From the NCBI GenBank assembly GCA_964494945.1, contig CAZBTX010000001.1, positions 3,088 through 67,087 on the forward strand: a stretch of DNA of 64,000 nt. The letters run 5' to 3'. Every line of letters begins with the position of its first letter. Within the stretch, counting starts at the first letter, position 1. The notes under the pieces are model-generated. The model saw nothing but the letters and a program-made list of their open reading frames with translations, was not told where the DNA came from and made no database searches. Positions 1 through 22,054 of the stretch are shown here, piece after piece. The stretch is from an uncultured Candidatus Saccharibacteria bacterium (GTDB lineage: Bacteria; Patescibacteriota; Minisyncoccia; Sungbacterales; JACQCQ01). Both the position numbers and the translations under genes were made by a program.

Positions 1-2
1 GC

Positions 3-128
3 GTGCAAATTTTTCACAAAACTCTCGGCGGTAAAATAATTGAGCTTAAAGGCCGAGGACACTATACCCTTGATGATATGGGGACAGAAGAGTTTCCGGA
101 GTTATTGAGTGAGATAAATCATCAATAA
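3..128 (+). CDS. 3' end of a gene truncated by the window start (hypothetical)
   Basis: Frame 3 is open from the window edge to a TAA at 126-128. Composition matches the AT-richer backbone. Confidence 0.3.
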   Translation: MQIFHKTLGGKIIELKGRGHYTLDDMGTEEFPELLSEINHQ

Positions 129-190
129 TTCACGATCTTGAACGGCGACCCGCCTTCGTTAAAACTTCGGCGGACAAGTAAATGCGTGAA

Positions 191-217
191 CCCCCACACC
201 AAAATTTGGTGTGGGGG
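191..217. repeat. Perfect hairpin CCCCCACACC-aaaattt-GGTGTGGGGG, related to the CCCCACACC-terminus repeat family. Possibly the terminator of the upstream gene.
   Basis: 10-bp perfect inverted repeat with a 7-nt loop, read directly. The same arm sequence forms the ends of the elements at 1248, 6461, 8035 and 14357. Confidence 0.5.
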
Positions 218-310
218 TAGAGCGCGGAGCAAAGAATTTTATTGGACCTAGGTCACAGGCCTGCCTGCCGGTAGGCAGGCTCGATTCCACGCACCGGAGC
301 CATCCTTTAC

Positions 311-334
311 AAAATAGCACAAAAGTGCTATTTT
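311..334. promoter_or_regulatory. Operator-like perfect palindrome AAAATAGCAC-aaaa-GTGCTATTTT
   Basis: 10-bp perfect inverted repeat upstream of the Cys-rich protein gene at 445. Confidence 0.35.
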
Positions 335-358
335 GTTTTTAGTTCATAGAATCATTTC

Positions 359-399
359 TTGGCCGCATGTGCGCATATGTAGTGCGTAGTTGCGGCCAA
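359..399. promoter_or_regulatory. Inverted repeat TTGGCCGCA...TGCGGCCAA flanking a 23-nt core
   Basis: 9-bp perfect inverted repeat read directly. It lies between the palindrome at 311 and the RBS of the 445 CDS. Confidence 0.3.
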
Positions 400-444
400 G
401 AAACCAATCACACGTTCAGAGATGCTAAAGGAGGGAAGCTGTCC

Positions 445-699
445 ATGGCGAACACTAGACCCAACGACATTCCCTGGGGCGGGAACTATCCGAAGGATGC
501 TGTGCAGTGTGATGGCTGTGCTGGTCATGGGTGCGTGGTCTGTGGCAATAAGGGCTGGCTACCGGTTAACCACCCTCGGGGGAAGCGATGTCTATGGGAT
601 AGATGTGGGGCGCCGATTGCACCTCCCCATTGGGGTGTTTATTGCACTTCAACATGTGCTTTCTTGGACGGGAACTTAGATGACTATTGGGGAAATTGA
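445..699 (+). CDS. Small Cys-rich, zinc-ribbon-like protein of about 84 aa
   Basis: ATG at 445 sits behind AAAGGAGGGAAG. Translation is rich in C-x2-C pairs (CDGC, CVVC, CTSTC). The region is GC-rich. Confidence 0.5.
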   Translation: MANTRPNDIPWGGNYPKDAVQCDGCAGHGCVVCGNKGWLPVNHPRGKRCLWDRCGAPIAPPHWGVYCTSTCAFLDGNLDDYWGN

Positions 700-911
700 G
701 CAATTGGTCGTTAAATAATGGGGGCCTGGCCAGCTCCTATTAATTTTGTTTTATAACCATTTCCGTACGTATTTTTCTTATGAGAAAATAGGTCCTGACG
801 TTGTTCAGCAATTGCGAGTGATGTCTTTTACTGTTCGGAGTTGATTGACGAAGGTATAACAAACATGCTTTTGTGTACTTAAGCGGTTATTTGTTCGTTA
901 GGAGGAGACCA

Positions 912-1193
912 ATGGAACAGAGGGAGGAACTGCTCGCCGATGGAAGGTCGGGAGAAGTCGCGGCCATAGCGGAGAACGGTGCGCGGCGTAGCCCCGGTCG
1001 CCCATCCGTAACGGCTCCGTTCGCGTTCGTGATCGGGCGGTGGCTCAATGCCCGGCCGGAGACCTCAGGCGCTGAAGTGTTGCGCCGCGCGCGACGTGTC
1101 GGTTACAGGGGCGGCAAGAGCGCCCTGTATGCCCTGGTCGCGCGCTTGAGAGCGGCCGCCATCTCCTCAACAACCCAGTCCGTCGATGCTTGA
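912..1193 (+). CDS. Small Arg/Ala-rich protein with a GRPS...GYRGGKSALYALVARL segment that resembles a transposase/resolvase-type HTH (hypothetical)
   Basis: ATG at 912 follows GGAGGAGACC. A strong terminator hairpin follows the gene. Confidence 0.4.
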   Translation: MEQREELLADGRSGEVAAIAENGARRSPGRPSVTAPFAFVIGRWLNARPETSGAEVLRRARRVGYRGGKSALYALVARLRAAAISSTTQSVDA

Positions 1194-1198
1194 AGTCA

Positions 1199-1247
1199 GC
1201 CCGTCTCCGCCAATGGCAGTAATGCCAACGGCGGAGACGGGCCATTA
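1199..1247 (+). terminator. Rho-independent-type terminator hairpin
   Basis: 13-bp perfect stem GCCCGTCTCCGCC...GGCGGAGACGGGC directly after the stop at 1193, then an A/T-rich tail. Confidence 0.6.
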
Positions 1248-1360
1248 TATTTATCCCCACACCTTCCTGAATACCCTGCGGTCTTGCCGCGAGGATGAAG
1301 GGCGGATTCAAATTTTTCCCGCGGGGTTCAATGCCCAGTGAGAATGTGTGGGGATAAATA
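1248..1360. mobile_element. MITE-like palindromic element, long form of about 113 bp, with TATTTATCCCCACAC / GTGTGGGGATAAATA terminal inverted repeats
   Basis: 15-bp perfect terminal inverted repeats. The internal sequence is about 85% identical to the copy at 14357-14470 (CCTTCCYGAATACCC..CGGTCTTGCYGCGRGGATGAAGGGCGGATTCARAT). Confidence 0.65.
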
Positions 1361-1425
1361 AAAAAGCGTAATTATTCCAAGCATTTTTCAACTTGGGGAG
1401 CACTTTGATAAACTGTGCAGCGGCA

Positions 1426-1454
1426 TTGACAATAGCATTGCAATATGCTATGCT
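1426..1454 (+). promoter_or_regulatory. Sigma-70-like promoter TTGACA-17 bp-TATGCT
   Basis: Near-consensus -35 and -10 hexamers with 17-bp spacing, about 120 nt upstream of the CDS at 1574. Confidence 0.4.
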
Positions 1455-1573
1455 TTGTGTTGTTCTTTAAGTATGTTTTGCGGTAACAAAAAGTGTGTTT
1501 AAATGCCCTTTTTGTTGTCGCAAAGCGATCAACCATTCCGCAATAAGGCGGGATGCAACCCAGGAGGCGTGCC

Positions 1574-1996
1574 ATGGAACGGTCTTATCAGTCCTTCCAG
1601 GCTCCCCGGGATGTAGTGATCCAGTTCGGTGCCAGCGACAGCGTTGGCAACGAGAAGCCTGGGTCGCTTCACTTCCTCAACCTCAACGGAGTCCAGCCGA
1701 TGTCGAGTCCGTACGGAACGCCTGTCGGCAATCCGGTGGACATCAGCATCGCGCTCTCGCCCCGTCAGGTGGCGCAGATCGTGAAGCACTTCTTCGTAGA
1801 GGTCGTCTTTGCGGGCGGCATCTACCAGAAGTTCTTCGAGCGCCTGATGACGAAGCGCTGGGCGTTGATGACGGCGGCAGAGTACAAGTCGCCCGTCATG
1901 GACTCCGAGGCTTTCCGCGAGATGCACTACCACAAGGACCATCCGAGTGGCCTGGTGCTTCCCGAGGAAGATGTCGACTGGGCGCACCATCGGTAG
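1574..1996 (+). CDS. Hypothetical protein of 140 aa (GC-rich island)
   Basis: ATG at 1574 after CAGGAGGCG. No recognisable family. A terminator follows. Confidence 0.45.
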   Translation: MERSYQSFQAPRDVVIQFGASDSVGNEKPGSLHFLNLNGVQPMSSPYGTPVGNPVDISIALSPRQVAQIVKHFFVEVVFAGGIYQKFFERLMTKRWALMTAAEYKSPVMDSEAFREMHYHKDHPSGLVLPEEDVDWAHHR

Positions 1997-2005
1997 GGGT
2001 TCTAA

Positions 2006-2065
2006 CCCCGCCAGGTGATAGTTTCGCGAAGCCGCGAGACGATTCACCTGGCGGGTGTTGTTATT
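2006..2065 (+). terminator. Terminator hairpin CCCCGCCAGGTGA...TCACCTGGCGGG followed by a T-rich run
   Basis: 12-bp inverted repeat read directly after the stop at 1996. Confidence 0.5.
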
Positions 2066-2285
2066 TCTGGAGACCAAGTTGATTCAAGAGTTTTCAAATC
2101 ACTGACAATTCTTTTCCAATCCAGAATTCTAAACACATCCAGCCGGGAGCTGCATGTAGACGAGATATTGACAGGATAATTTAAGTGTGATATCTTTTAC
2201 ACTAAGTCGGCGCTGGATAAGGCAATGATCGAGGCCTAATTGTCAGCTTGCCGATATATTATTCGCAGAACTTTCTTTTGTATTT

Positions 2286-2486
2286 ATGCCAGAAGGAACC
2301 ATTGCCCGTAAGACCGATAGAGGCTTCGGCTTCATCAAGCGCGCGGGCGAGGAAAAAGACCTCTTTTTCCACTCGAACGAATTGAAGGGAGTTACCTTTG
2401 ATGAACTTCAAGAAGGCGACGCGGTGACATTTGAAGTCGCGGACAGTCCGAAAGGGCCGAACGCGGTGAATGTAAACCGCGCCTAA
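2286..2486 (+). CDS. cspA: Cold-shock protein (CspA family)
   Basis: 66 aa with RNP1-like GFGFI and HxxxL motifs (KTDRGFGFIKRAGEEKDLFFHSNEL). Confidence 0.85.
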   Translation: MPEGTIARKTDRGFGFIKRAGEEKDLFFHSNELKGVTFDELQEGDAVTFEVADSPKGPNAVNVNRA

Positions 2487-2494
2487 CAAAAACA

Positions 2495-2535
2495 AAAAGC
2501 GTCCCGACATGCGTCGGGACGCTTTTTGTTTTTTC
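2495..2535 (+). terminator. Rho-independent terminator
   Basis: AAAAAGCGTCCCGAC-atgc-GTCGGGACGCTTTTT is a perfect stem followed by a T-run. Confidence 0.75.
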
Positions 2536-2613
2536 ATTTTGATTTGACAGGGGAGTGGGTACCATGTGAACCTATACAAAACACCATCAAACGCTCCATG
2601 AAAGGAGGCGCCA

Positions 2614-2976
2614 ATGCAAGCGTTGTACACGAACATCATCGTCTACACCGTCTTTCTGGTTCTCTGTTGTCTGTTGGCGCTGATCTCCGTTTGGAAAGCG
2701 CACAAGCGGAAGTTGCGCTATGTCTGCTGGATAATCTCACGTGGAGAGGGGTACGTCAGCGCGGAGATCATCTGGCGCCGCATGGGGCGGGAGGGCGGCG
2801 GGGTCATGTCGCCAGATTTTCTGAAGAGGTTCCTTCCGAGGTTGCGGAAGGAAGGATACCTCACCATGCAGCGTCCCGCTTTAATTGCGCTCTACCAGCT
2901 GACGGACAGAGGTCAGGCGGAAGCTCTCCGGCACCGCCCCAGGCCTCGTGCTGTCGTAAGGAGCTTGCGAGGATGA
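2614..2976 (+). CDS. Membrane-anchored small protein with an N-terminal TM helix and a basic winged-helix-like C-terminal part (hypothetical regulator)
   Basis: ATG after AAAGGAGGCG. A hydrophobic stretch of about 20 aa is followed by an R/K-rich region. Confidence 0.4.
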   Translation: MQALYTNIIVYTVFLVLCCLLALISVWKAHKRKLRYVCWIISRGEGYVSAEIIWRRMGREGGGVMSPDFLKRFLPRLRKEGYLTMQRPALIALYQLTDRGQAEALRHRPRPRAVVRSLRG

Positions 2977-3209
2977 GAGAAATCATTCGTGGTACGCCAA
3001 GTGTCGCTAGGAAGTACTGCCCGGCGTGCGAGCCGGATGCTGACCCCAGTCGCGAGATTCTGGACGTACTCTGGTGCGAGAAGCACGTGCCTTCGCGGGA
3101 TGGCAAAGACGATGCGTTGGCGAAGACGAGCGACGTGCCTTTATCTAGAAACGCCGAGGCCGGCGGGGACAACAACCGAAGATGGTGCGAAGCACTGCAT
3201 CGGCGTTAA
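2973..3209 (+). CDS. Small Cys-containing protein (CPAC...WCEKH, zinc-ribbon-like), translationally coupled to the preceding gene
   Basis: ATGA start/stop overlap at 2973-2976. Confidence 0.4.
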   Translation: MREIIRGTPSVARKYCPACEPDADPSREILDVLWCEKHVPSRDGKDDALAKTSDVPLSRNAEAGGDNNRRWCEALHRR

Positions 3210-3331
3210 GGGCCGCTGTGGGAATCAACTCCCCGGCGGCCATTTCTTTTTGTTGACATAAGACCCAAAGTGTGCTTCTCTTTGATTACGCGTTTCTAGA
3301 TTTCCCATGGGCAGAAAGAGGAGGCCCGAGT

Positions 3332-3679
3332 ATGAGCGGACGGGCGGTGAAGCACGTGCGGCAGTCGCTCGGCACCAAGCTCCGCGTGCTCCGGAAGTCA
3401 CGTGGGCTCTCGCAGGAGCATCTCGGCGAGAGGTCGAACCTCTCCGGAAAGTTCATCGGCGAAGTGGAGAGGAGCGAGAAGTCCATCTCCGTGGACTCGC
3501 TCTGGAGAGTCGCGGCGGCCCTCGAGATGCCGCTTCGCGACCTCGTGGACGCGGACTGGAGGAAGCCGGTGACGGACCGCGACAAGAAGATCGCCGAAAT
3601 CATGGCGCTTCTCCGCCGGAAGGGGCAGAAGGAGCTCGCCATGGCCTACGCGCTTCTTCAGGCGCTCTTTGGGAGGTAG
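3332..3679 (+). CDS. XRE-family (Cro/CI-type) HTH transcriptional regulator
   Basis: ATG after GAAAGAGGAGG. The translation LRVLRKSRGLSQEHLGERSNLSGKFIGEVERSEKSISVDSLWRVAAAL matches the HTH_XRE pattern. Confidence 0.7.
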   Translation: MSGRAVKHVRQSLGTKLRVLRKSRGLSQEHLGERSNLSGKFIGEVERSEKSISVDSLWRVAAALEMPLRDLVDADWRKPVTDRDKKIAEIMALLRRKGQKELAMAYALLQALFGR

Positions 3680-3768
3680 ACAAGCTTGGGGATATTCCGG
3701 CGCACGCCGCGGTCGTTGTCAGACCGCGGCGTTTTTCTTTTTATAGAAAATGGGTGTATTTTAAGGGC

Positions 3769-4197
3769 ATGAATTACGGAGAAGGATACAGCCCGCCCGA
3801 GTCAAAAAGCCCGCTGACGGCCCATTATTACGGAGATGCCGTAAGACGCCTTTTTCTACTTGGCGGCATCATCATGATTCTAACCCTGCCGTTTTTTTCA
3901 AACCTTATCCCCGTGTCTGGCTGGGTTTCGCTTTTTGCCATAATTGTTGTTGGAGTAGTATCCGGTCTTACGAATCCAATGCATATTTGGGTGGCAGTAT
4001 TCAATCTGGTTATATCTGTTATCGCTTTTGCGGTGTTTGAATATTACGCGGTGTTACAGTACTTGGCGGATGGCAACGCGAAAGAAACGTGGTTTTTCTT
4101 GACCAACCAGGCGCTGGCTCTGATATTTTTTGTCGCAATATACTACGCGACTAAAACCCTCCGCGGGGATCTCTTAAGAAAAAAAGACGCTGTTTAG
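3769..4197 (+). CDS. Small integral membrane protein with 3-4 TM helices (hypothetical). First gene after the return to AT-richer backbone.
   Basis: ATG at 3769. Long hydrophobic segments. Confidence 0.45.
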   Translation: MNYGEGYSPPESKSPLTAHYYGDAVRRLFLLGGIIMILTLPFFSNLIPVSGWVSLFAIIVVGVVSGLTNPMHIWVAVFNLVISVIAFAVFEYYAVLQYLADGNAKETWFFLTNQALALIFFVAIYYATKTLRGDLLRKKDAV

Positions 4198-4236
4198 AAC
4201 TATTGCATACGCGGGGGAATTTGGTTATAGTCCCTC

Positions 4237-4956
4237 GTGGAATTTGATATGGATGACATCCGTGCCGAAGCATCAAGATTTGAGATAATTGAAAGACGCG
4301 AAAAAAATCGGCGCTTTAAGTGCGCGGCTATGTGGCTTTCCGCCGCCGTTTTTGTCTCCGGCGCCGTTGCCGGAACTTTTTGGTTGGCTAAAAATGAAGG
4401 ACCCGCTGTCACCGCTTCTATTTCCGAGGCCGTGTCGGAAAAAGATTGGTCCAGGGGCTCGCCCGACGCCAGAGCGGTACTGGTTGAATACAGCGATTTC
4501 CAATGCCCGGCTTGCGCGGCTTATTACCCCATGGCTGAAGAACTGCAGAAAGAATTTGGAGACAAGCTTCGTTTTGTGTACCGGCATTTCCCGTTGCGAC
4601 AGCACGCCTATGCTAATTTAACCGCTCGGGCTACCGAAGCCGCCGGCAGACAGGGAAAATTTTGGGAGATGTATGGCATAATTTTTGAACATCAAAAAGA
4701 ATGGGCCGCTTCCGACCAAGCCAGCGAGCTTATGGCCGAATATGCCAAAACCCTTAATCTTGATATGGATAAATTCTCCAAAGATCTGGCTTCGGACGAG
4801 GTGAAAGAAAGAGTGGAGAATAATCTTCAGAGCGGATTGAGTTCGCGCGTGGAAGGCACGCCAACTTTTTTCTTGAACGGCTCAAAAATCCAAAACCCCA
4901 GAAACTATGCTGAATTCAAACAACTTATCACCGAAACTCTCGCCGGCGGTTCTTAA
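4237..4956 (+). CDS. DsbA-family thiol-disulfide oxidoreductase, membrane-anchored thioredoxin fold
   Basis: CPAC active-site motif inside a thioredoxin-like context (FQCPACAAYYP). N-terminal TM anchor. Confidence 0.75.
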   Translation: MEFDMDDIRAEASRFEIIERREKNRRFKCAAMWLSAAVFVSGAVAGTFWLAKNEGPAVTASISEAVSEKDWSRGSPDARAVLVEYSDFQCPACAAYYPMAEELQKEFGDKLRFVYRHFPLRQHAYANLTARATEAAGRQGKFWEMYGIIFEHQKEWAASDQASELMAEYAKTLNLDMDKFSKDLASDEVKERVENNLQSGLSSRVEGTPTFFLNGSKIQNPRNYAEFKQLITETLAGGS

Positions 4957-5377
4957 ACGTTTGGCGGTTATTTTTCTGATATTAGGGTCTTTGGGATTTT
5001 TGGACGCCCTGTATTTGAGCGTGAGCTACATTAGCGGCGTTCCGCCCTCTTGCTTCATTACCTCCAGCTGCGACGTTGTGACCACGAGTGAATACGCGGC
5101 CATCTGGGGGATACCGGTAGCAATGCTGGGAGTTTTTTACTATTTTACGGTGTCTCTTTTGGCGCTTTTGACGCTGGATACGAAAAATGAAAAGTTTCTA
5201 TCGGGACTTTCATGGTTCACGCTTCTTGGTTTTTTGGCGTCATTGTGGTTTGTTTACGTACAATTCTTTATTCTTAAGGCCCTTTGCATTTATTGTCTGC
5301 TGTCTGCTCTGATTTCCACCCTGCTTTTTATTTTGGGCGTTTACGTTATATACTTATTTAGGCGCAAAGTCGCGTAA
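4907..5377 (+). CDS. Vitamin K epoxide reductase (VKOR)-family membrane protein. The real start may be the TTG at 4961.
   Basis: Multi-TM protein with a CIYC (CxxC) motif. It immediately follows and overlaps the DsbA-like gene. Confidence 0.6.
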   Translation: MLNSNNLSPKLSPAVLKRLAVIFLILGSLGFLDALYLSVSYISGVPPSCFITSSCDVVTTSEYAAIWGIPVAMLGVFYYFTVSLLALLTLDTKNEKFLSGLSWFTLLGFLASLWFVYVQFFILKALCIYCLLSALISTLLFILGVYVIYLFRRKVA

Positions 5378-5405
5378 TTATTTTCAATAAAAACTTTTAA
5401 ATTAT

Positions 5406-5792
5406 ATGAACATGCGTTTGATTGAATGGGTTTTGCGAATAGCGGTAGCCGGTGAGTTTGCCGGGCATGGCATGATAGCCATGCAAAACCTTAATCCCAA
5501 ATGGTCTCTTTGGATACAGCAATTTTTGCCGTCTTTGTCGCACGAAGCGGCTGTTACGCTTTTATTTTGGATAGGGGTCGCGGACCTTTTGGTGGCTCTT
5601 ATAGTTCTTATAAAACCGATAAGAATAGTTTTATTGTGGGCGGCTTTTTGGGGATTTTGGACGGCCTTAATGCGTCCCTTGGTAGGTGAGCTGGTTTGGG
5701 ATTTCATAGAGCGCTGGGCCAACTGGGGGGCGCCATTGGCGCTGCTTTTAATGCGCGGGTTCTCTTGGAATTTGCGCGGCTGGTTTAGATAA
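5406..5792 (+). CDS. DoxX/MauE-like small membrane protein
   Basis: 4-TM hydrophobic protein next to the DsbA/VKOR pair. The family call is from the general pattern only. Confidence 0.4.
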   Translation: MNMRLIEWVLRIAVAGEFAGHGMIAMQNLNPKWSLWIQQFLPSLSHEAAVTLLFWIGVADLLVALIVLIKPIRIVLLWAAFWGFWTALMRPLVGELVWDFIERWANWGAPLALLLMRGFSWNLRGWFR

Positions 5793-5897
5793 CCGCAAAT
5801 TGGGTATAAATATCTTGCTGATTGACTTAGGGGTAGTAGATTGGTAAGTTGCTAGAGAATCGCGTTCACGTCAAACCAGAAAGGGGGGCGTGGCCCC

Positions 5898-6365
5898 ATG
5901 ATGACAAGCCGGACTCGGCGCAGGATAAGGCGGTTTTTCAGAAGAAACAGACCCTGGATTTTTCTGGCTTCTGTGCTCCTCATGCTGGCAGTAGTCGCGG
6001 TTTTGGGGTGTGCTCCGCGGCGGGAAGTGCCGATGCCGAAGAGTCAGGAAACGATTCCGCGACCGCGCCATGACGACTTCGTGGCACAGTTATCGGGCGA
6101 GAAAGAAATATTCGGGAACGAGCTGGAGTTGCCGCCGCGCACGCATGAGCACGGTCTGCGCCGCGCGCCCATCCCTGACGCGGATAACCCGGCTGTCCCA
6201 CTTGACTACTGGCGGCGCTGCGAGTTCAGCGCCATACCGGAGAATGGACTTTCCATCCTCAACTGCTTCTACCCCAGCGGCCAGAAGTTCCGCTACGGTC
6301 CTATAGCCGGTCACCAAGGGCCCGCGCGACGAACAGCGCGGGCCCTTTTTTTAAGACGTTTTTAA
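5898..6365 (+). CDS. Putative lipoprotein on a GC-rich micro-island
   Basis: ATG after GAAAGGGGGGCG. Signal peptide ending LAVVAVLGC (lipobox-like). The 3' end of the CDS runs through its own terminator hairpin. Confidence 0.45.
   Translation: MMTSRTRRRIRRFFRRNRPWIFLASVLLMLAVVAVLGCAPRREVPMPKSQETIPRPRHDDFVAQLSGEKEIFGNELELPPRTHEHGLRRAPIPDADNPAVPLDYWRRCEFSAIPENGLSILNCFYPSGQKFRYGPIAGHQGPARRTARALFLRRF
6318..6352 (+). terminator. Rho-independent terminator GGGCCCGCGC...GCGCGGGCCC followed by TTTTTTT
   Basis: 10-bp perfect stem and T-run, read directly. It overlaps the last codons of the 5898-6365 CDS. Confidence 0.65.
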
Positions 6366-6389
6366 CGAAGGTGCTATGATTTAATAATT

Positions 6390-7667
6390 ATGAGGAAGTT
6401 GTTATTTATTGCATTGATCGGCATCGGACTTTTACTGGCGCTCGCTTGGGGCGTTGCCTTTTATCCCCACACCTTCCCGAATACTCCGTGGGAGGGTGTG
6501 GGGATTTATTGGGAAAACTTGCGCGGAGCGTGGTTTGCGGTAAAACCCGCCGCACCCAAAATAACTGAAAAAGAGACCGTTTCGGAACTTCCTTTAAAAT
6601 TACCGGCAGACCTTTCCATTTCGTTATTCGCCAAAGACCTTCCCGGCGTTAGAGTCATGGCGCGTGACTCTTTTGGTAACTTTTGGGTAAGTCAGACATC
6701 AGAGGGCGTGATCTCATTTTTGGAAATGGAGGGCGGTAAAGTAAAAAGCCAAAGTATAATACTCAAGAATTTGAAAAAGCCGCACGGTCTGGCCTTTGAC
6801 CCCGAAAATCCTTTTACGCTTTACTTTGCGGAAGAAGATAAGCTCTCAAAAGTGACGGTCTATCCCAACGGGCTCCCACAAAAAATCGCTGATTTGCCGT
6901 CGGGTAGTGGGCACTTTACGCGGACCATTGGATTTGGGCCGGACGGGCGGCTTTATGTTTCCATTGGGTCTTCCTGCAATGTTTGCCGCGAATCTGATAA
7001 CCGGCGCGCCGCTATTTATTCTATGAAAAAAGATGGGTCGGACTTTAAATTATATGCCAGTGGTCTTCGTAACGCCGTATTTTTTACTTGGGCGCAGGAC
7101 GGAAAATTATGGGCGACGGATAACGGTCGTGATCTACTGGGGGATGATCTGCCGCCGGATGAAATCAACATCATTGAATCCGGCAAGAATTATGGTTGGC
7201 CGATTTGCTACGGCAAAAACATACATGACACCGTCTTTGATAAAAATACTTATATTCGCAATCCGTGCATGGAACCGTTTGAAACACCATCTTATATAGA
7301 CCTGCAGGCGCACTCGGCGGCCCTGGGACTCGCTTTTGTACCCCAAAACGGTTGGCCGGAGGATTATCAGGGTAACCTGATAGTGGCTTATCACGGCTCC
7401 TGGAATCGGACCGAGCCGACTGGGTATAAAGTAGTGCGTGTTAAATTGAATTCTTCGGGCGAATTTTTAGGCATTGAAGATTTCATTACCGGTTGGCTCC
7501 GACGCTCCGACGAGAAGTCAGGAGTCGGAGTCCCGACCGTAACGTCGGGACTGACTTCATCGGGCAAAGTTCTAGGCCGTCCGGTTGGAGTTTTCGCCGA
7601 GCCGGGTGGGGTGGTCTACATTACAGACGATAAAGCGGGGATAATATATAAGATAAGCAGAAAATAA
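6390..7667 (+). CDS. PQQ-dependent soluble sugar (glucose/sorbosone) dehydrogenase-like beta-propeller protein
   Basis: Signal peptide. Overall similarity to the YliI/sGDH-type pattern (GPDGRLYVSIG, WATDNGRD, NYGWP). Confidence 0.7.
   Translation: MRKLLFIALIGIGLLLALAWGVAFYPHTFPNTPWEGVGIYWENLRGAWFAVKPAAPKITEKETVSELPLKLPADLSISLFAKDLPGVRVMARDSFGNFWVSQTSEGVISFLEMEGGKVKSQSIILKNLKKPHGLAFDPENPFTLYFAEEDKLSKVTVYPNGLPQKIADLPSGSGHFTRTIGFGPDGRLYVSIGSSCNVCRESDNRRAAIYSMKKDGSDFKLYASGLRNAVFFTWAQDGKLWATDNGRDLLGDDLPPDEINIIESGKNYGWPICYGKNIHDTVFDKNTYIRNPCMEPFETPSYIDLQAHSAALGLAFVPQNGWPEDYQGNLIVAYHGSWNRTEPTGYKVVRVKLNSSGEFLGIEDFITGWLRRSDEKSGVGVPTVTSGLTSSGKVLGRPVGVFAEPGGVVYITDDKAGIIYKISRK
6461..6508. mobile_element. 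Short copy of the ATCCCCACACC-terminus MITE-like family, inserted in-frame near the 5' end of the PQQ-dehydrogenase gene
   Basis: ATCCCCACACCTTCCCGAATACTCCGTGGGAGGGTGTGGGGAT. The same termini and CTTCCCGAATAC core as the copies at 1248 and 14357. It encodes YPHTFPNTPWEGVGIYW within the ORF. Confidence 0.6.
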
Positions 7668-8392
7668 TGGCGGATAACCAATATAACGAGGCCTATATTA
7701 AAGCCAAAGAGCAACAGGCGGAAAAGCACAAGGAGGTTTCTCACGAAAGATCAAAAGACCGCTTGCCGCCCGGCCAAGTACTTACTAAAACCTTTCCCAT
7801 TCTGGATTTGGGTATTAGGCCGACTTTAGACCGTTATCCCAAGTGGACACTGGAGGTTAAGGGTAACGTGGAAAATCCGATCGTATTATCCATTGATGAA
7901 GTGAAAAAAATGGCCGATACCGATATTACGGCTGATTTTCATTGTGTGACGCGTTGGTCGCGGTATGACCTGCATTGGTCGGGGGTCCCATTTTCTAAGA
8001 TCATGGAGCTTGTAAAACCTCGTCTTTCCGCAAACCCCCACACCAAACGAGAACAGCTGGAGAGTATGAATTTTAGTAGTGTCAGTCCTCGTTCTGGTGT
8101 GGGGGTAAAATTCATAGTTTTCCATTCTTTTGACAAATATACGACGAACGTAACTTTGGATGACGTAATGCAAAAGAACGTTATTGTGGCGACAAAACTG
8201 GAAGGCGGCGAAATACCGCCGGAGCACGGCGGGCCGATCAGGATGATACTGCCGCATCTTTACGGCTGGAAATCGGCCAAATTCTTAACGGCGATTGAAT
8301 TTGTGGACGAAGATAAACCCGGTTTTTGGGAGGTACGGGGATACTCCAATAGAGCGCGCCCCTGGATTGAGGAGAGATACAGTGGCGATTAA
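7667..8392 (+). CDS. Sulfite-oxidase-family molybdopterin oxidoreductase (YedY/MsrP-like catalytic subunit)
   Basis: Motifs typical of the SO family, including the CVTRWS cysteine-ligand region. Its ATG overlaps the stop of the upstream gene (TAATG). Confidence 0.7.
   Translation: MADNQYNEAYIKAKEQQAEKHKEVSHERSKDRLPPGQVLTKTFPILDLGIRPTLDRYPKWTLEVKGNVENPIVLSIDEVKKMADTDITADFHCVTRWSRYDLHWSGVPFSKIMELVKPRLSANPHTKREQLESMNFSSVSPRSGVGVKFIVFHSFDKYTTNVTLDDVMQKNVIVATKLEGGEIPPEHGGPIRMILPHLYGWKSAKFLTAIEFVDEDKPGFWEVRGYSNRARPWIEERYSGD
8035..8105. mobile_element. 71-bp palindromic element CCCCCACACCAAACGAGAAC...GTTCTGGTGTGGGGG, inserted in-frame inside the YedY-like gene
   Basis: 15-bp near-perfect inverted repeat whose outer arms equal the 191-217 hairpin and the MITE termini. 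It encodes NPHTKREQLESMNFSSVSPRSGVGVK in the ORF. Confidence 0.55.
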
Positions 8393-8862
8393 TGATTTTG
8401 GCACACCGTTTCGTTTTTAGGCGCGGAGTCAGGCAGTACGGCGTTTAAAACAGAGCTCACAGCATTAACGATAACGCCATTTTTCGGATTTTCCTCCTTT
8501 AACTCTTGGATTAAGACCTTAGCTCCACCCACAGCCGATTGTAGAATTTCTCTTTCTTTTGCCGTTTTGGGTGCCGGAGTTTGGGCGATAACTTGTATCT
8601 CTTTTTCCAGTTTATCTATTATCTCGGCACGCTTTTCCACGGGATTATCTGGTTTTATCCTTTCGGCGATATTGCCGGCGATGGGCGTTATCTTAGCTTT
8701 TAACGGTGGAAGCAGTTTGTCGGGGGAAAAGTTAGAAAGACCCACCGTAGCCATGGCGTTTTGAGCTTTTGCTTTAATGTTCTTTTGTATTTCCGGCGGT
8801 AAGTAGCGAAATCCAATATAGCCGGATACAACTATAGCTGCAATTATAAAAGATGTTTTCAT
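8389..8862 (-). CDS. Membrane-anchored Lys/Ala-rich hypothetical protein
   Basis: N-terminal TM helix followed by a low-complexity region. Convergent with the YedY-like gene. Confidence 0.45.
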   Translation of the reverse strand: MKTSFIIAAIVVSGYIGFRYLPPEIQKNIKAKAQNAMATVGLSNFSPDKLLPPLKAKITPIAGNIAERIKPDNPVEKRAEIIDKLEKEIQVIAQTPAPKTAKEREILQSAVGGAKVLIQELKEENPKNGVIVNAVSSVLNAVLPDSAPKNETVCQNH

Positions 8863-8930
8863 AAGATAAGCAAATTCATAATAGCATAAATTTTGTGGTG
8901 TTTTATGGTGTTCGGGGTCTTATCCCGCCT

Positions 8931-8962
8931 TATATCCCTAATTCGCACGAATTAGGGATATA
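8931..8962. promoter_or_regulatory. Perfect 15-bp inverted repeat TATATCCCTAATTCG-ca-CGAATTAGGGATATA
   Basis: Read directly. It lies in the promoter region of the minus-strand gene 8389-8862. Confidence 0.4.
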
Positions 8963-9111
8963 TTACAATTATCTGCTATAGCATGTTATTGATGTAATTT
9001 TAAAATTCAAGAATATGAAAAAGACACAAAAATTCAATTTGACCAAGCGTAAAGCGCTGTGCTACGAATAAGACGTTCGCTGACATCTGAATATAAAAAC
9101 GAAAGGGGGCG

Positions 9112-10194
9112 ATGCTGGTGGGACGAAAGTTGGTGAGACGAAGGATGGGGGATTTGCCTAGAGTTCTAAAACAGGGCGCTGTTGCCGTTTTTGTCGTTGA
9201 CGCCGCAACTTCATCCGCTAGCATCGTTTCTCACGTTGCTGCTGTTGAGAAGGCGGCACTGAAACTCGCGATTTTCTTAGAGAAAGATGCGAGCGGCAAA
9301 GAAGAAGTACTGGCGGAGATGGGCATCTTTAGGGGACGTCCCTATCGATCGAACCATAAGGCACGCAATTTTGTTGGGATGCGTTCTTATAAGCGCTCAC
9401 TAACAGAGGTTCAAGCGGGGCTGGCGGCGCGGCATATCTGCCTTTTTCTAGACGGCCTAGTGCACCACCGTAGCCAGCAGGAGAAATTGCCAGGCGAGAA
9501 CGGCAGAATGCGCACGCGCGGCTGGGCCCCGCCCGAGATCGATTGGAACTTCAGGCGTCCCTACGGACCTTGTATCACCATCGAAGAGCGCGATTCCGCC
9601 CTACTCCGTCTTTTTGAGGAGCTGGAGACGCTGAATCCGCTTCTCGGCTGGGGAGTGCAGAAGGTAGCGAACGTCGCCAATCATGGTAACTTTCAGAAGA
9701 CCTACCGTGTCCGGAAGAAGGGTGGTAAGTTTCCCAAAAGTTGGTGGGAAGCAGTTGAACTTCTGAAGAAGCGCGACCGGCGGCCGTATTTGAGGCCGCA
9801 TGTTTTGGCGAAAATCGCTTGCCGCGTCAGAAATACTTCCAAGCGGGACAAGCTGTATAACGCGAAGCGTTTCATCGAACTCTGCCGTGAGGAAGAGCTC
9901 GTCGGCCCGTGGGGATACGATCGGGCGCCGCATTATCTCACGCATCCGTACAAGTTTAAGATCCTCCCGCGGGGGGCGGAGTTCTGGGACGTGCTGGAGG
10001 GAAACCACGGCGTGGCCGTAAGTTTCATCCGCAAGATCGAGAGCCGCTACACGATTCGTATCGTGGAGCGAAGAGCAAGTTGGCACAGGAGGAACGAAAA
10101 ACACCAAGCAGCCAACGGTCACACAGAACAAGGTGATCTCTTCGCCGACGATGCGGCGTTCCAAGAGTTCTCACGCATCATTGACGAAGCTTAG
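9112..10194 (+). CDS. Hypothetical 360-aa basic protein, first gene of a GC-rich two-gene island
   Basis: ATG after AAAGGGGGCG. No family recognised. The dense antisense ORFs in the track indicate high GC. Confidence 0.45.
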   Translation: MLVGRKLVRRRMGDLPRVLKQGAVAVFVVDAATSSASIVSHVAAVEKAALKLAIFLEKDASGKEEVLAEMGIFRGRPYRSNHKARNFVGMRSYKRSLTEVQAGLAARHICLFLDGLVHHRSQQEKLPGENGRMRTRGWAPPEIDWNFRRPYGPCITIEERDSALLRLFEELETLNPLLGWGVQKVANVANHGNFQKTYRVRKKGGKFPKSWWEAVELLKKRDRRPYLRPHVLAKIACRVRNTSKRDKLYNAKRFIELCREEELVGPWGYDRAPHYLTHPYKFKILPRGAEFWDVLEGNHGVAVSFIRKIESRYTIRIVERRASWHRRNEKHQAANGHTEQGDLFADDAAFQEFSRIIDEA

Positions 10195-10211
10195 AAGAAA
10201 GGAGGCGCGGC

Positions 10212-11399
10212 ATGGCTAAGCTCGGTACGGGCGCGGCCCTGCCGCGCCCTGATCTCGAACGAGCGGAGTTCGTGTTTCAGAAGCTCGCGAGGGCATGGCG
10301 GGAGCGTGAAAGCGGTGGGTACTTCGGGGGTCTGGTGGCGCCGCAACAACGCTATATGCCCGAAGTCATCAAGAAAAATCCCGACCGCGTCGCGCAGTTC
10401 CTCACGTTTTCCGCCATACTCATGCGCGGCTCGGTTGACTCGGATCATATGTTCGCTTTCGTGGAGAAGTTCTACCGCCTGTACCCTCACTTTTTTGACC
10501 CGCGGGTGCTGGCGCGAACAAAACCGGATGTTTTGGAATCGGTCTTGCGTGAAACCGCGCGCCTTTCTTATCCTAGGGCCTCATATGAGCGCCTCAAAGG
10601 GATAGGCCCGCTCGGGTACAAAGCGGACGAGTTCATACAGCATCTTATCGCCATGGCGCGGGGGATCTGCGATCAATGGGAAGGAGATGCGCGGAATATC
10701 TTCTACGGCGTCAGCAACTTTGACGAGGCGGTGAAGCGCGTCAAGTTCCAGGGCATAGGAGAAAAAATCCTGGCGCTCTGGATGCTGTGGTTCTGGGAGT
10801 TCGGGTTGATACCCAAGGATGTGTCGCTGCCGGGTGTGGCGGACTTTCACTTCCTCCGGATACTTCTCGCCAACCGCATTTGGCAGCCGGAGTTAAAGCC
10901 GCTTCGTGAGGTAGTGCGCGCCGCAGGCCAAAAGCGGTTTCTGCCGCACCTTCTGGAGACGCCGGGCGTGAGGGTTTTAGACAGCACGCGCAATCGCCTG
11001 ATGCGCTGGACGGACGAGTTCCTGCGAGACTTGGGGCTTGACTCTTATGATGTCTCGCACGGTACGTGGTATCTGTCACGGGAGTTCTGCTCGCTCTATC
11101 CCGGGAACAGGGCATCCTCTACCGGTAGGAAAAAGCGAAACGAGATAGTCATAACCGGTTTCGCGGATCTCATAGGGCTTGAGCGCGGCGAGGGCTGGCC
11201 CGATCGTCCCGACTACTGCGGCACCTGCCCGCTCTCATCAACCTGCGAGCTCTCGGTCCCCAACGCGCCGTACTACAGGAACGGCGTAATGGCGGTGGTG
11301 GGGAAGCGCATTCATTCGCCGTTTACGGAACTGCCGGTTATGCGCGAGGTGCCGAGAGACTTTAAGGAAAGGTCATCGGCCTGGAGCCCCGCCCGTTGA
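10212..11399 (+). CDS. HhH-GPD superfamily DNA-glycosylase-like protein with a C-terminal Cys cluster
   Basis: ATG after GAAAGGAGGCGCGGC. FQGIGEKILALWMLWFWEFG...VADFHFLRI aligns by eye with the EndoIII LPGVGRKTA...AVDTHIFRV HhH-GPD segment. A second L-x-GIG hairpin is present. The C-terminal C-x2-C-x5-C is CGTCPLSSTC. Confidence 0.45.
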   Translation: MAKLGTGAALPRPDLERAEFVFQKLARAWRERESGGYFGGLVAPQQRYMPEVIKKNPDRVAQFLTFSAILMRGSVDSDHMFAFVEKFYRLYPHFFDPRVLARTKPDVLESVLRETARLSYPRASYERLKGIGPLGYKADEFIQHLIAMARGICDQWEGDARNIFYGVSNFDEAVKRVKFQGIGEKILALWMLWFWEFGLIPKDVSLPGVADFHFLRILLANRIWQPELKPLREVVRAAGQKRFLPHLLETPGVRVLDSTRNRLMRWTDEFLRDLGLDSYDVSHGTWYLSREFCSLYPGNRASSTGRKKRNEIVITGFADLIGLERGEGWPDRPDYCGTCPLSSTCELSVPNAPYYRNGVMAVVGKRIHSPFTELPVMREVPRDFKERSSAWSPAR

Positions 11400-11430
11400 A
11401 GCACAGCGCGGCGGGGCTCTTTTCTTTTGC
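11387..11430 (+). terminator. Terminator CCCCGCC...GGCGGGG followed by CTCTTTTCTTTTG
   Basis: 7-bp GC stem and T-rich tail after the stop of 10212-11399. Confidence 0.45.
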
Positions 11431-13284: not shown

Positions 13285-13394
13285 CCCGTTAGAAGCAGAT
13301 CGCGATCAGAGTCGCTTTCTGCTTATAATAATCTCTTAATAATGCCATAATTTATTCTTTAAACTTCTTTCGCGATCGCGGCTTCTAACGGGAT
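13283..13394. repeat. Palindromic element of about 110 bp with ATCCCGTTAGAAGC / GCTTCTAACGGGAT termini (repeat family 2)
   Basis: 14-bp perfect terminal inverted repeat. Its arms CCGTTAGAAGCAGATCGCGATCAGAGTCGCTTTCTGC recur in inverted orientation at 17531-17644. Confidence 0.6.
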
Positions 13395-21551: not shown

Positions 21552-21559
21552 CAGTATAG

Positions 21560-21930: not shown

Positions 21931-21969
21931 AATTTGTGAAATAAATCGAAGATTCTCGACGGCAGAGGT

Positions 21970-22040: not shown

Positions 22041-22054
22041 CCTCTGCCGTCGGA

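Follow-up and report, generated by a model that had tools for sequence, protein, structure and literature searches.

The question raised by this locus is how short G+C-rich patches came to lie among the housekeeping genes of a backbone of lower G+C content. The stretch analysed, here called the window (64,000 nucleotides; GenBank assembly GCA_964494945.1, contig CAZBTX010000001.1, positions 3,088 to 67,087, forward strand), comes from the chromosome of a Candidatus Sungbacteria bacterium (CPR/Patescibacteria), an ultra-small organism from groundwater. A sequence-only reading had described the patches as islands, and had proposed that either small foreign cassettes were acquired repeatedly or the contig is chimeric, the first island resembling a phage or plasmid control region. 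The follow-up bore out its G+C patches, Shine-Dalgarno (SD) sites and terminators, while several of its boundaries and strands had to be changed; cassette acquisition gained support, and neither the chimera nor the control region did. With a probability of roughly three in four, we consider the islands to be small, self-contained gene cassettes acquired horizontally from donors of higher G+C content (about 58–65%). This assessment draws on composition, tetranucleotides, expression signals, junctions, selection, restricted distribution, the orf140 cassette, traces of mobility, generality across related loci and the literature.

The G+C profile of the window (mean 0.489) is not flat, since the standard deviation of 300-bp G+C is 0.060 against a binomial 0.029, twice the random expectation. 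About nine G+C-rich patches of 0.35–2.3 kb, together 8.5 kb or 13% of the window, carry about 16 small genes; they are placed between housekeeping genes, with the same backbone to the left and right. Mean G+C is 0.604 for 12 core island genes versus 0.471 for 50 housekeeping or backbone genes, and mean GC3 is 0.70 versus 0.50, so that the shift (+0.2 to +0.4 GC3, with z-scores up to +6.1) sits at synonymous sites. The islands deviate in tetranucleotides as well as in GC3: composition-normalised correlations with the backbone are 0.54, 0.48 and 0.39 for island 3, island 4 and unit 1d, compared with 0.77 ± 0.10 for size-matched backbone chunks. Islands are also dissimilar to one another (mutual r about 0.5), which fits several donors and equally the pattern expected of a weak signal. 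The Arg/Ala/Gly-rich translations and dense spurious reading frames noticed earlier were both recovered on computation (Arg/Ala/Gly share 0.282 versus 0.213, p=2e-4; 2.7 versus 1.5 unannotated ORFs per kb, counting those of 80 aa or more). No RNA family accounts for the islands. A further G+C-rich stretch, overlooked in the sequence-only reading, lies at 45300-46600 within a 2355-aa ORF, and several low-G+C troughs, likewise overlooked, are present in the window.

Expression signals divide the genes in the same way. A strong SD site, as had been claimed for island genes, precedes all 12 (anti-SD duplex dG at most -6.9, median -11.9) and only 4 of the 50 backbone genes (median dG -0.15; p=1.3e-7), whose leaders are A/T-rich, G-poor and SD-less; within 1-36458 the gene starts used were those called independently in NCBI and Logan records. 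In a control for G+C, the annotated start of nine of the 12 island genes had the strongest SD, unmatched by any internal position, and the contrast is not accounted for by the G+C richness of the islands. In published work, the anti-SD motif was detected in just 48% of Parcubacteria 16S rRNAs (PMC9297842). Terminators with at least nine G-C pairs number five in the window (at 2489, 3704, 6316, 23079 and, on the minus strand, 37388) and none is in the backbone; all lie 3' of island units or of csp, an SD-less gene. Conversely, the AT-rich palindromes assigned to the backbone were found in its intergenic DNA exclusively, as was the motif TTAGAAATTAG (14 matches versus 1.8 expected).

Such a dichotomy might also arise if the islands were a special class of native genes, with high GC3, SD sites and terminators kept by selection, for instance for tight translational control or mRNA stability, in a genome where translation otherwise starts without an SD. 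Two SD-led genes with native-like GC3, those for ZnR1 and the M23 peptidase, indicate that SD sites may well be recognised in this host and that an SD need not mark recent foreign origin. SD-led G+C outliers recur elsewhere, too: across 47 related CPR loci, 40% of G+C-outlier ORFs are SD-led versus 6% of other ORFs (Fisher p = 2.5e-5). Nevertheless, GC3 shifts of the size seen here and deviant tetranucleotides are not expected from expression-linked codon bias, and the gene for ribosomal protein L9 has a GC3 of 0.48 and no SD site.

The region 130-3700 (G+C 0.543), previously taken as a single island, resolved into four units on the plus strand (345-715, 870-1250, 1420-2060 and 2560-3740) with backbone-like DNA in between, and reads better as a mosaic of small units, each with its own boundaries, together with mobile-element debris. 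Unit 1a (345-742) encodes ZnR1 at 445-699, an 84-aa protein with two CxxCxGxG (DnaJ-type) zinc-finger repeats and no match in protein family searches; its gene has the SD AAAGGAGGG (dG -12.2) and is no GC3 outlier (G+C 0.54, GC3 0.52), and a terminator-like hairpin follows at 716-742. Unit 1b (870-1249) holds a 93-aa ORF at 912-1193 (G+C 0.67, GC3 0.71; SD TAGGAGGAG, dG -10.2) that resembles the N-terminal HTH of IS21-family transposases (NCBIfam NF033546, E=3e-4). The match spans profile positions 37-102 of 294, far under the family cutoff, and the ORF is probably what remains of a mobile element. It is followed at 1250-1365 by an unstranded MITE-like repeat of 116 nt with terminal inverted repeats of about 18 nt (TTTATCCCCACACCTTCC ... 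GGTGTGGGGATAAA); repeat search and alignment located another full copy at 14359-14474 and an internally deleted 56-nt copy at 6460-6515.

Unit 1c (1420-2060) is the orf140 cassette. It comprises a sigma-70-type promoter-like site at 1426-1454 (TTGACA-17-TATGCT), a structured leader at 1479-1573 with the SD CAGGAGG (dG -10.3), the 140-aa ORF at 1574-1996 (GC3 0.82) and a long terminator hairpin at 2007-2057. The neighbouring plus-strand gene csp (2286-2486; Pfam CSD, E=1e-18), for a cold-shock protein, has no SD (dG +0.2), a mildly raised GC3 (0.60, z=1.6) and a terminator of nine G-C pairs at 2489-2532. Of ambiguous origin, csp could be a native gene. Unit 1d (2560-3740) is a three-gene cassette closed by a terminator at 3704-3732 and encodes a membrane-anchored 120-aa protein (2614-2976; GC3 0.73, SD dG -11.9), a Cys-rich 78-aa protein (2973-3209; GC3 0.65, SD dG -7.4) and an XRE-family HTH regulator (3332-3679; HTH_3 E=1.5e-7; GC3 0.89, SD dG -11.9).

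Island 4 adjoins a tRNA gene. The plus-strand tRNA-Ala(TGC) lies at 21970-22042 and was called by ARAGORN and Rfam; 13 nt further on, its 3' half is repeated at 22056-22094 (plus strand, 85% identical). A pattern search returned two matches versus none expected, and the copy carries compensatory T-stem changes (GGGAG/CTCCC versus AGGAG/CTCCT). The duplication is taken as an att-like scar at the left edge of the island; the fragment adjoins the tRNA instead of marking the distal boundary of island 4, and thus does not delimit it. Island 4 itself (22100-24350, plus strand) contains three secreted or lipoprotein-type genes (G+C 0.60-0.65, GC3 0.63-0.78, SD dG from -12.1 to -13.4): orf275 (22230-23057) and orf121 (23293-23658), each with a signal peptide, and a glycine-zipper lipoprotein gene with a Pfam match (23681-24235). 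Terminators lie at 23079-23108 (11 G-C pairs) and about 24290-24345. A protein search with orf275 returned the query itself and nothing else.

The tRNA scar, the IS21-like fragment and the MITE-like repeat, together with an XRE gene similar to profiles of phage repressors and of restriction-modification control proteins, would suit decayed remnants of a prophage, plasmid or integrative element of which, in island 1 especially, the control region is left. However, no integrase, replication, structural or conjugation gene was found, nor any intact transposase within an island, and the units, with their separate promoters and terminators, are divided by backbone-like DNA. Convincing PHROGs matches were obtained for the generic XRE regulator alone (one other protein was marginal, E=0.005), and PADLOC matched the XRE only. 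Neither IMG/VR contigs nor GenBank phage records yielded a relative; plasmid records gave no match to orf121 and, for the XRE, weak generic HTH matches of at most 36% identity. The phage or plasmid control region that had been suggested for island 1 thus lacks hallmark genes and database support, and an origin of the islands as element remnants appears quite unlikely. No flanking direct repeats beyond chance were detected at the islands.

Spans proposed at 5850-6365, 9100-11400 and 22150-24350 stand out clearly by G+C (0.593, 0.573 and 0.597). Island 2 (5850-6365, plus strand) carries one orphan gene at 5898-6365 (G+C 0.59, GC3 0.66, SD dG -11.5) with a terminator of 10 G-C pairs at 6316-6347; its 155-aa product had no match in protein family searches. 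Island 3 (9100-11400, plus strand) is a conserved two-gene cassette of orf360 (9112-10194) and orf395 (10212-11399), with G+C of 0.55 and 0.59 and GC3 of 0.62 and 0.72. One relative of orf395 was found among 5.8 billion proteins and 10 of orf360 among 1.84 billion cluster representatives; another contig, L104, carries the pair with identical 17-nt spacing at 76% nucleotide identity. All top Foldseek matches to the low-confidence model of orf395 are HhH-GPD enzymes, at E values of at least 0.5, and its fold may be HhH-GPD glycosylase-like. The plus-strand M23 peptidase gene (17013-17459; Peptidase_M23 E=5e-13), noted earlier as less clearly G+C-rich, is SD-led (dG -11.6) with a G+C of 0.54, yet its synonymous sites are backbone-like (GC3 0.52); the gene may have been acquired longer ago, or it may be a native one with an SD.

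Two proposed islands were corrected. The span 36960-37750 averages 0.489 G+C and is not an island as a whole, although 37350-37700 within it is G+C-rich: this is island 5, with one minus-strand 81-aa orphan gene at 37421-37666 (G+C 0.565, GC3 0.67; SD AAAGGAGAT, dG -9.0), no Pfam match and a terminator at 37388-37362 (10 G-C pairs). Island 6 (54480-54960) was corrected to the minus strand; its two small genes (G+C 0.55-0.58, GC3 0.61-0.67) encode a 58-aa protein with an H-x3-C-x2-C motif (54733-54909; SD AAGGAGG, dG -12.5) and a 56-aa protein (54549-54719; SD GAAGGAG), neither with a Pfam match.

Foreign-looking composition and translation signals would be seen as well if G+C-rich pieces of another organism had been joined in by misassembly or binning contamination. 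The junctions of islands 1-4 were compared with other assemblies. Islands 3 and 4 are 100% identical in six contigs, among them L001 and L004 of the NCBI MAG GCA_016181625.1 and four (L002, L003, L005 and L006) in Logan assemblies from three different runs; for islands 1 and 2, L097-L099 match the window at 99.96-100% identity. Both junctions of each of these islands thus recur; at the sites tested, the contig is no chimera. All the corroborating assemblies stem from a single sampling campaign (SRR121133xx-121134xx) and a single population, and they exclude assembler artefacts better than population-level oddities. One discrepancy exists, in that MAG contig L097 parts from the window at 7769, outside any island; the stretch 7769-7909 is spanned by no independent contig. 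Inserts of 0.35-2.3 kb in the same backbone that respect gene boundaries and have their own promoters and terminators are unlike chimeric joins, and the orf140 cassette is also inserted in an unrelated CPR assembly, L092. A chimera is extremely improbable.

Island genes are real and under purifying selection (dN/dS 0.16-0.52 across those tested; 0.16 and 0.22 for the orf360/orf395 pair and 0.26-0.52 for orf140). They are mostly orphans and confined to this lineage: not one of the 12 was found in 80 related CPR loci, where backbone genes do occur. The closest relatives are remote (best AspRS identity 62%; GTDB PriA matches at most 29%), and the gene order there was too rearranged for a true empty site to be shown.

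The orf140 cassette recurs in other CPR genomes. In eight contigs it is conserved as a whole, from promoter and leader through SD and ORF to terminator; the consensus structure of the leader has 33 pairs, four of them with compensatory changes. In this leader the SD seems to base-pair with the start codon, a hint of regulated translation. In the CPR contig L092, whose other DNA has a G+C of 0.38, the SD-led cassette is an outlier (0.605) and follows secY-adk-map, a context different from that in the window. In CPR-type contigs of G+C 0.54-0.60 (about 58%) it matches its surroundings, and the order rplU-orf-recR is kept in two of these. Being an outlier in low-G+C genomes and native-like in high-G+C CPR contigs, the cassette points to movement between CPR bacteria, and other CPR bacteria of higher G+C are its probable donor pool. 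The searches pointed to a donor pool for orf140 and for no other cassette. The purifying selection and the SD/start pairing would also be consistent with a native gene class. Nevertheless, the island genes are orphans absent from the 80 loci, the contexts of orf140 vary by genome, and its composition is matched locally in high-G+C contigs only; a native class is accordingly judged unlikely.

Repeated acquisition of foreign cassettes, as had been proposed, thus fits the GC3 shifts, tetranucleotides, orphan status, absence from the 80 related loci, tRNA scar, IS21-like fragment and a cassette shared across CPR contexts. About nine segments would have entered, most likely by horizontal transfer, between housekeeping genes of a genome whose native genes (about 47% G+C, GC3 about 0.50) have SD-less leaders and no strong GC-hairpin terminators. 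Most segments would have kept donor signals, namely a strong GGAGG-type SD and, in the majority, a GC-hairpin plus T-run terminator, to which the orf140 unit adds its sigma-70-type promoter. What they encode is mostly small proteins, unassigned or regulatory: secreted proteins and lipoproteins, zinc-finger mini-proteins, an XRE regulator, and the orf360/orf395 pair, which may include a glycosylase-like protein. Site-specific integration at tRNA-Ala may have brought in island 4, transposition-related events island 1, and DNA uptake followed by illegitimate recombination the others. Horizontal transfer has been documented in Patescibacteria before: up to 13% of their genome length has been ascribed to it, and about 83% of the transfers detected ran from Patescibacteria to Patescibacteria (PMC12455944). 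The window is a clear example of this known process.

Sliding-window analysis bore out the compositional heterogeneity that had been claimed by eye. At an overall G+C content of 48.9%, the standard deviation among 300-bp windows was 0.060, compared with 0.029 from binomial sampling. The G+C-rich patches (islands 1-6) occupy 13.2% of the window and alternate with the housekeeping DNA between them (the backbone). Among the spans proposed by the sequence-only reading, 5850-6365 (GC 0.593), 9100-11400 (0.573) and 22150-24350 (0.597) stand out clearly, while the remaining ones needed adjustment. Island 1, delimited as 130-3700 (GC 0.543), does contain high-GC runs at 801-1350, 1501-2150 and 2551-3850; it is patchy, with a backbone-like trough at 2001-2500. 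The span 36960-37750 has average G+C overall (0.489) and is GC-rich at 37351-37700 only. Several low-GC troughs and a GC-rich stretch at 45300-46600 had been overlooked.

This last stretch is intragenic and represents a different situation from the islands. It belongs to a 2355-aa ORF (40550-47617, minus strand) with repeated GNVGIGTT-type modules, seen at the DNA level as a 40-56-nt repeat that occurs six times from 42306 to 45482. The coding sequence at 45300-46600 is rich in Gly, Ala, Ser and Thr (GC2 up to 0.59) and its GC3 (third-codon-position GC) is raised as well. That both are elevated suggests mosaic evolution of this putative surface protein.

The 12 core island genes have a mean GC of 0.604 and a mean GC3 of 0.70, compared with 0.471 and 0.50 for 50 backbone genes, and individual GC3 z-scores reach +6.1. 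Their translations are richer in Arg, Ala and Gly (combined fraction 0.282 versus 0.213, p=2e-4), and unannotated ORFs of at least 80 aa are denser in islands than in the backbone (2.7 versus 1.5 per kb), both as the sequence-only reading had described. The composition-normalised tetranucleotide correlation with the backbone is 0.54 for island 3, 0.48 for island 4 and 0.39 for unit 1d of island 1, whereas size-matched backbone chunks give r = 0.77 +/- 0.10. As in genomic islands generally, composition and codon usage are unlike those of the host. Similarity of the islands to one another is low too (r about 0.5) and speaks against a single donor. Structured RNA genes were ruled out as the origin of the patches: at Rfam gathering thresholds the 64 kb contain no rRNA or ncRNA covering the GC-rich segments, only two tRNAs, which Rfam and ARAGORN place at 21481-21552 (tRNA-Lys) and 21970-22042 (tRNA-Ala). 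A relaxed Rfam search of 1-4300 returned nothing relevant.

Patches of foreign composition could also arise from misassembly, and a chimeric contig had been put forward as the alternative. Independent contigs were therefore retrieved by exact protein sequence look-up and compared with the window; they comprised contigs 3, 18 and 21 of the NCBI MAG GCA_016181625.1 and the Logan single-run assemblies SRR12113430, SRR12113420, SRR12113383 and SRR12113384. Positions 1-7769 and 7909-35806 are covered at 99.96-100% identity. This coverage takes in the M23 peptidase gene and both junctions of each of islands 1-4, all of which recur in NCBI and Logan contigs, so that a chimera is rejected at these junctions and the contig can be trusted there.

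The sole discrepancy between assemblies lies away from the islands. MAG contig 18 (JACOYZ010000018) matches window 1-7769 with three mismatches and then diverges (its positions 8764-9766); in it the molybdopterin-oxidoreductase gene (window 7667-8392) is cut short, and a WecG-like gene comes next. MAG contig 21 picks up at 7909, and no independent contig crosses the 140-bp gap 7769-7909. Either the strains differ here or one of the assemblies contains a misjoin.

Each patch holds one to three small protein-coding genes. For window 1-36458 the gene starts used were those called independently in the NCBI and Logan records. The backbone carries housekeeping genes such as those for DsbA, PriA, Fmt, Def, CtpA, L9, PyrG, AspRS, ScpA/B, MraY, FtsW, MurG, GltX, HrcA and CorA. 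The majority of island proteins, as searched against Pfam, PHROGs, NCBIfam and PADLOC, are orphans. Profile matches were obtained for a cold-shock domain protein (csp, 2286-2486), an XRE-type HTH protein (3332-3679) and a glycine-zipper lipoprotein (23681-24235). A 93-aa ORF (912-1193) shows weak similarity to the HTH at the N terminus of IS21 transposases (E=3e-4; 20 bits, where the family cutoff is 160 bits). Beyond XRE and this fragment, PADLOC, NCBIfam and PHROGs yielded for the island proteins only a marginal PHROGs match of the membrane-anchored wHTH protein (E=0.005). Compared with their homologues, the island ORFs have dN/dS values of 0.16-0.52, which shows purifying selection.

Island 1, previously treated as a single block, splits into four units. 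These are a DnaJ-type zinc-finger mini-protein gene (ZnR1, 445-699), the IS21-like fragment (912-1193) with a 116-nt MITE-like repeat after it (1250-1365), the cassette of the gene orf140 (1420-2060) and a three-gene unit (2560-3740). The csp gene lies between units; it lacks a Shine-Dalgarno (SD) site and its GC3 is raised only mildly, so that it may be native. Island 5 reduces to one 81-aa gene (37421-37666, minus strand). In island 6, where a plus-strand ORF had been implied, the genes found are two mini-genes on the minus strand.

The expression signals separate the two classes of genes sharply. An anti-SD duplex of -6.9 kcal/mol or lower was found upstream of the start in 12/12 island genes (median -11.9) and in 4/50 backbone genes (median -0.15; Mann-Whitney p=1.3e-7, island versus backbone). 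This contrast is not due to G+C richness, since the median energies at internal positions are alike (-3.45 in island genes, -3.0 in backbone genes) and in 9 of the 12 island genes the real start is stronger than every internal position. In backbone genes, about 80% of a gene's own internal positions exceed its start in strength. In a start-agnostic test with a greedy ORF caller, backbone genes showed no SD enrichment over pseudo-starts (p=0.82); within islands this test is confounded by spurious long ORFs, and the comparison there rests on the independent gene calls and the within-gene controls. Backbone leaders are A/T-rich and depleted in G. Leaderless mRNAs were rejected as the native initiation mode, as a -10-like box lies 3-13 nt upstream in only 14% of backbone genes, compared with 5% in the control.

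Termination follows the same division. Five terminators have nine or more G-C pairs in the stem. Four lie behind island units (3704, 6316, 23079 and 37388, the last on the minus strand) and one behind csp (2489); none was found in roughly 52 kb of backbone. AT-rich palindromes, in turn, occur between genes of the backbone only. The distributions of SD sites, terminators and intergenic elements thus agree with what the sequence-only reading had said of these signals, and the pattern as a whole proved more regular than had been visible by eye. The genes for ZnR1 and the M23 peptidase are SD-led with backbone-like GC3, and are either older acquisitions or native SD users.

Several sequence elements of the backbone were recorded alongside. 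The AT-rich motif TTAGAAATTAG has 14 matches with at most one mismatch (1.8 expected), mostly intergenic and often in tandem, and none within islands; sites include 18888, 39720, 50219, 53066-53161, 55572, 58878-58994, 62651 and 62779. A role as a native promoter or regulatory element is possible. Near-perfect 30-31-nt AT-rich palindromes (e.g. TCACTTTAATACTGTACAGTATTAAAGTGAG) are repeated around small backbone genes at 39792-39822, 40242-40272, 40464-40494, 25814-25843 and 26268-26297, and look like operators or native terminators. Two backbone genes, for an LTD-domain protein and for the CtpA protease, share near-identical 38 nt directly before the ATG, GCAGAAAGCGACTC[T/C]GATCGCGATCTGCTTCTAACGGG (at 13285-13324, minus strand, and 17603-17642, plus strand), which contain a hairpin and may form a common regulatory site.

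The distribution of the island genes among relatives is sporadic. A metagenome scan with AspRS gave 80 related CPR loci (AspRS 53-62% identical). In a tblastn search of these loci 0/12 island genes were found, although backbone genes do match; orf140 occurs elsewhere, in other contexts. Gene order in the 80 loci was too rearranged for a strict comparison with empty sites, and a PriA scan of GTDB species representatives found no close relative (matches at 25-29% identity). Taken with the composition and the tetranucleotides, these observations uphold the proposal that small foreign cassettes were acquired repeatedly. Our main reading, with a probability of roughly three in four, is that a Sungbacteria genome, its native genes making no use of SD sites, has repeatedly taken up small, self-contained expression cassettes by horizontal transfer. 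That the islands are instead a special class of native genes is a minority possibility; a native use of SD sites is one of the two options for ZnR1 and the M23 peptidase, and the foreign composition and the 0/12 result speak for acquisition.

Donors were sought for several island proteins. For orf275 of island 4 no match except itself was found, and for orf121 of the same island tblastn gave no plasmid match. In island 3, a search of 1.84 billion cluster representatives gave 10 relatives for orf360, and orf395 has a single one (P0002) among 5.8 billion proteins. Island 3 is a conserved two-gene cassette: another contig carries both genes with identical 17-nt spacing and 76% nucleotide identity.

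The product of orf395 (10212-11399) had no match in Pfam, NCBIfam or a PDB sequence search. By eye, a GIGEK motif resembling a helix-hairpin-helix was recognised, together with a C-x2-C-x5-C cluster. Members of the HhH-GPD superfamily share the HhH-GPD fold and a catalytic Asp, and some also have a [4Fe-4S] cluster loop. For orf395, AF2 gave a model with a mean pLDDT of 47.5 that is confident at residues 45-200 only; with this low-confidence model, the top Foldseek matches were all HhH-GPD glycosylases, at E values of at least 0.5. As modelled, orf395, whose cassette partner is the orphan orf360, may encode a glycosylase-like protein that has diverged strongly.

The clearest indication of a source comes from orf140. 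The family comprises 10 members at identities between 41% and 86%. In eight contigs the unit is kept whole: promoter, leader of ~100 nt, SD site and ORF are followed by a long terminator hairpin, in which compensatory changes are seen among these contigs. In a CPR-type contig (L092) the gene follows secY-adk-map and is an SD-led outlier (GC 0.605, GC3 0.77) in DNA of GC 0.38. In six contigs with surroundings of GC 0.54-0.60 it is no outlier. Two of these six (L094 and L095) carry it in a conserved rplU-orf-recR-ybaB neighborhood. A ribosomal-protein operon lies upstream of it, and gene calling gave no L30 gene there, as in CPR. Being an outlier in low-GC and not in high-GC contigs, orf140 appears at home in higher-G+C CPR lineages. 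The pattern of sequences indicates that the cassette was probably transferred from these into lower-G+C ones, Sungbacteria included. The donor pool would then consist at least partly of CPR bacteria of higher G+C.

The orf140 leader, conserved in front of every gene of the family, lies at 1479-1573 in the window and has counterparts in five other contigs (L092 2217-2323, L100 82-187, L101 1368-1473, L103 375-479 and L102 1-78). It folds into hairpins of 19 and 9 bp plus a helix in which the SD site pairs with the start codon, and compensatory changes occur at four pairs in five sequences. Rfam gave no match for the leader, and a covariance model found no copies outside orf140 genes in about 1 Mb of CPR DNA. 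On thin evidence, the leader may be a new cis-regulatory RNA controlling a CPR-specific protein. The AF2 model of orf140 itself, from a 10-sequence alignment, was too poor for a fold search (pLDDT 64, pTM 0.39).

Traces of mobility were sought in and around the islands. Island 4 is the only one inserted beside a tRNA gene: it adjoins tRNA-Ala (21970-22042), with GC-rich DNA from about 22100. The 3' half of this tRNA (22004-22042) is copied at 22056-22094 and spans the anticodon loop through to the acceptor end; the 39-nt copy lies 13 nt past the tRNA, at the proximal edge of the 2.2-kb island. Its T-stem shows compensatory changes, which points to an origin in a different functional tRNA, as with an element-borne att site. 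A pattern search of the whole window (two matches) found no distal copy of the tRNA-Ala 3' end at island 4. The half-copy is proximal, and neither an integrase nor flanking repeats beyond chance accompany it. It probably records a past integration at tRNA-Ala and does not delimit island 4.

Two further features of this locus were observed. An 81-aa GIY-YIG gene (21685-21930) between tRNA-Lys and tRNA-Ala is a low-GC outlier (GC 0.33, GC3 0.28), and a homologue in a related locus (L027) lies directly upstream of a tRNA-Ala; judged from these positions, it may be a mobile, homing-endonuclease-like gene tied to tRNA loci. The tRNA-Ala itself is flanked by a 10-12-nt inverted repeat (21958-21969 / 22041-22054), CGACGGCAGAGG ... 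TCTGCCGTCGGA, which would give the precursor transcript a longer acceptor stem.

At the 10 units, direct repeats or target-site duplications flanking them did not exceed chance, and in the island ORFs no integrase or transposase domain was found, only the sub-threshold 93-aa IS21-like fragment. The MITE-like repeat is present as 116-nt copies at 1250-1365 and 14359-14474 (83% identical) and as a 56-nt deleted copy at 6460-6515; it is short, multicopy and bounded by terminal inverted repeats of about 18 nt. The 56-nt copy lies in frame in the N-terminal coding region of a GSDH-like gene (ORF 6390-7667), where it encodes ...FYPHTFPNTPWEGVGIY..., and the full copy at 1250-1365 encodes a similar peptide in an unannotated ORF.

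Island 1 had been likened to the control region of a phage or plasmid, and it does contain an XRE gene. This gene, of a generic type, is the only island gene with a convincing PHROGs match, its plasmid matches are weak, generic and taxonomically scattered, and no relatives of the tested island proteins were found in IMG/VR contigs or phage records. A phage or plasmid origin is thus unsupported. Integron cassettes were considered too. Integrons consist of a cassette array beside the integrase gene intI, with promoterless cassettes bounded by attC sites. The units here differ from these: they are dispersed, many have their own terminators, orf140 has a promoter-like site and no integrase domain was found.

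The association of SD sites with unusual composition extends beyond the window. Across 47 related CPR loci, which total 788 kb and 850 ORFs, strong SD sites precede a median of only 9% of long ORFs, and 40% of GC-outlier ORFs are SD-led, compared with 6% of the others (odds ratio 10, Fisher p=2.5e-5). SD-led GC-outlier genes are rarer there, about 1/100 kb versus about 1/7 kb in the window. In one of the related contigs (L070, 9995-11407) an AspRS gene is such an outlier (GC 0.518 against a contig median of 0.417, SD dG -14.3), which hints that even core genes are replaceable by transfer in these lineages.

In SD-poor CPR genomes, the combination of a strong SD site, raised GC3 and a GC-hairpin terminator offers a simple marker of acquired genes, nearly diagnostic in the window and about 10-fold enriched in the 47 related loci. 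The orf140 cassette provides a concrete case of inter-CPR transfer of a complete expression unit, its conserved structured leader included. A question raised is whether canonical SD sites are functional in a Parcubacteria lineage whose own genes skip them; the 16S gene lies outside the window. The wider joint reading, in which the cassettes are a portable CPR gene pool and a separate translational class and the orf140 leader is a new cis-regulatory RNA, is considered unlikely. If it were true, each portable cassette would circulate among CPR bacteria with its own promoter, SD site and terminator, and how strongly this class is expressed in an SD-less host would be set by anti-SD availability.

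Compared with known systems, the 116-nt repeat resembles MITEs in its terminal inverted repeats and several copies, one of them internally deleted. The 93-aa ORF weakly resembles the transposase HTH region of the IS21 family, but unlike in IS21 elements there is no full-length transposase in the window. Classical tRNA-associated genomic islands are integrase-mediated, with att repeats derived from the tRNA 3' end. Island 4 is like them in lying directly downstream of tRNA-Ala with a copy of the tRNA 3' half, and unlike them in its very small size (2.2 kb), a repeat that does not bracket it and the lack of an integrase.

Streamlined CPR genomes are already known to receive genes horizontally, and the islands are a clean example of this known process. 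In groundwater Patescibacteria, up to 13% of genome length was assigned to transfer, and about 83% of the transfers were between Patescibacteria (mSystems 2025, PMC12455944). The islands described here are similar in their groundwater host, atypical composition and share (13% versus up to 13%), in transfer between Patescibacteria, predominant there and seen here for orf140, and in a cargo of regulators and proteins of unknown function. The near-perfect division by SD sites and terminators finds no mention in the passages of that study consulted here (PMC12455944). Unlike classical islands, the units here are far smaller, with one to three genes each, and are scattered between housekeeping genes.

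Bacteroidota and some of the Parcubacteria are examples of lineages with SD-independent initiation. The backbone genes resemble these in lacking SD enrichment and in their G-depleted, A/T-rich leaders. Of the Parcubacteria 16S rRNAs, just 48% were found to contain the anti-SD motif (Tsurumaki et al. 2022, PMC9297842), which fits the SD-less backbone. Unlike such lineages, the genome has a minority of genes with strong canonical SD sites, and these coincide with compositionally foreign DNA.
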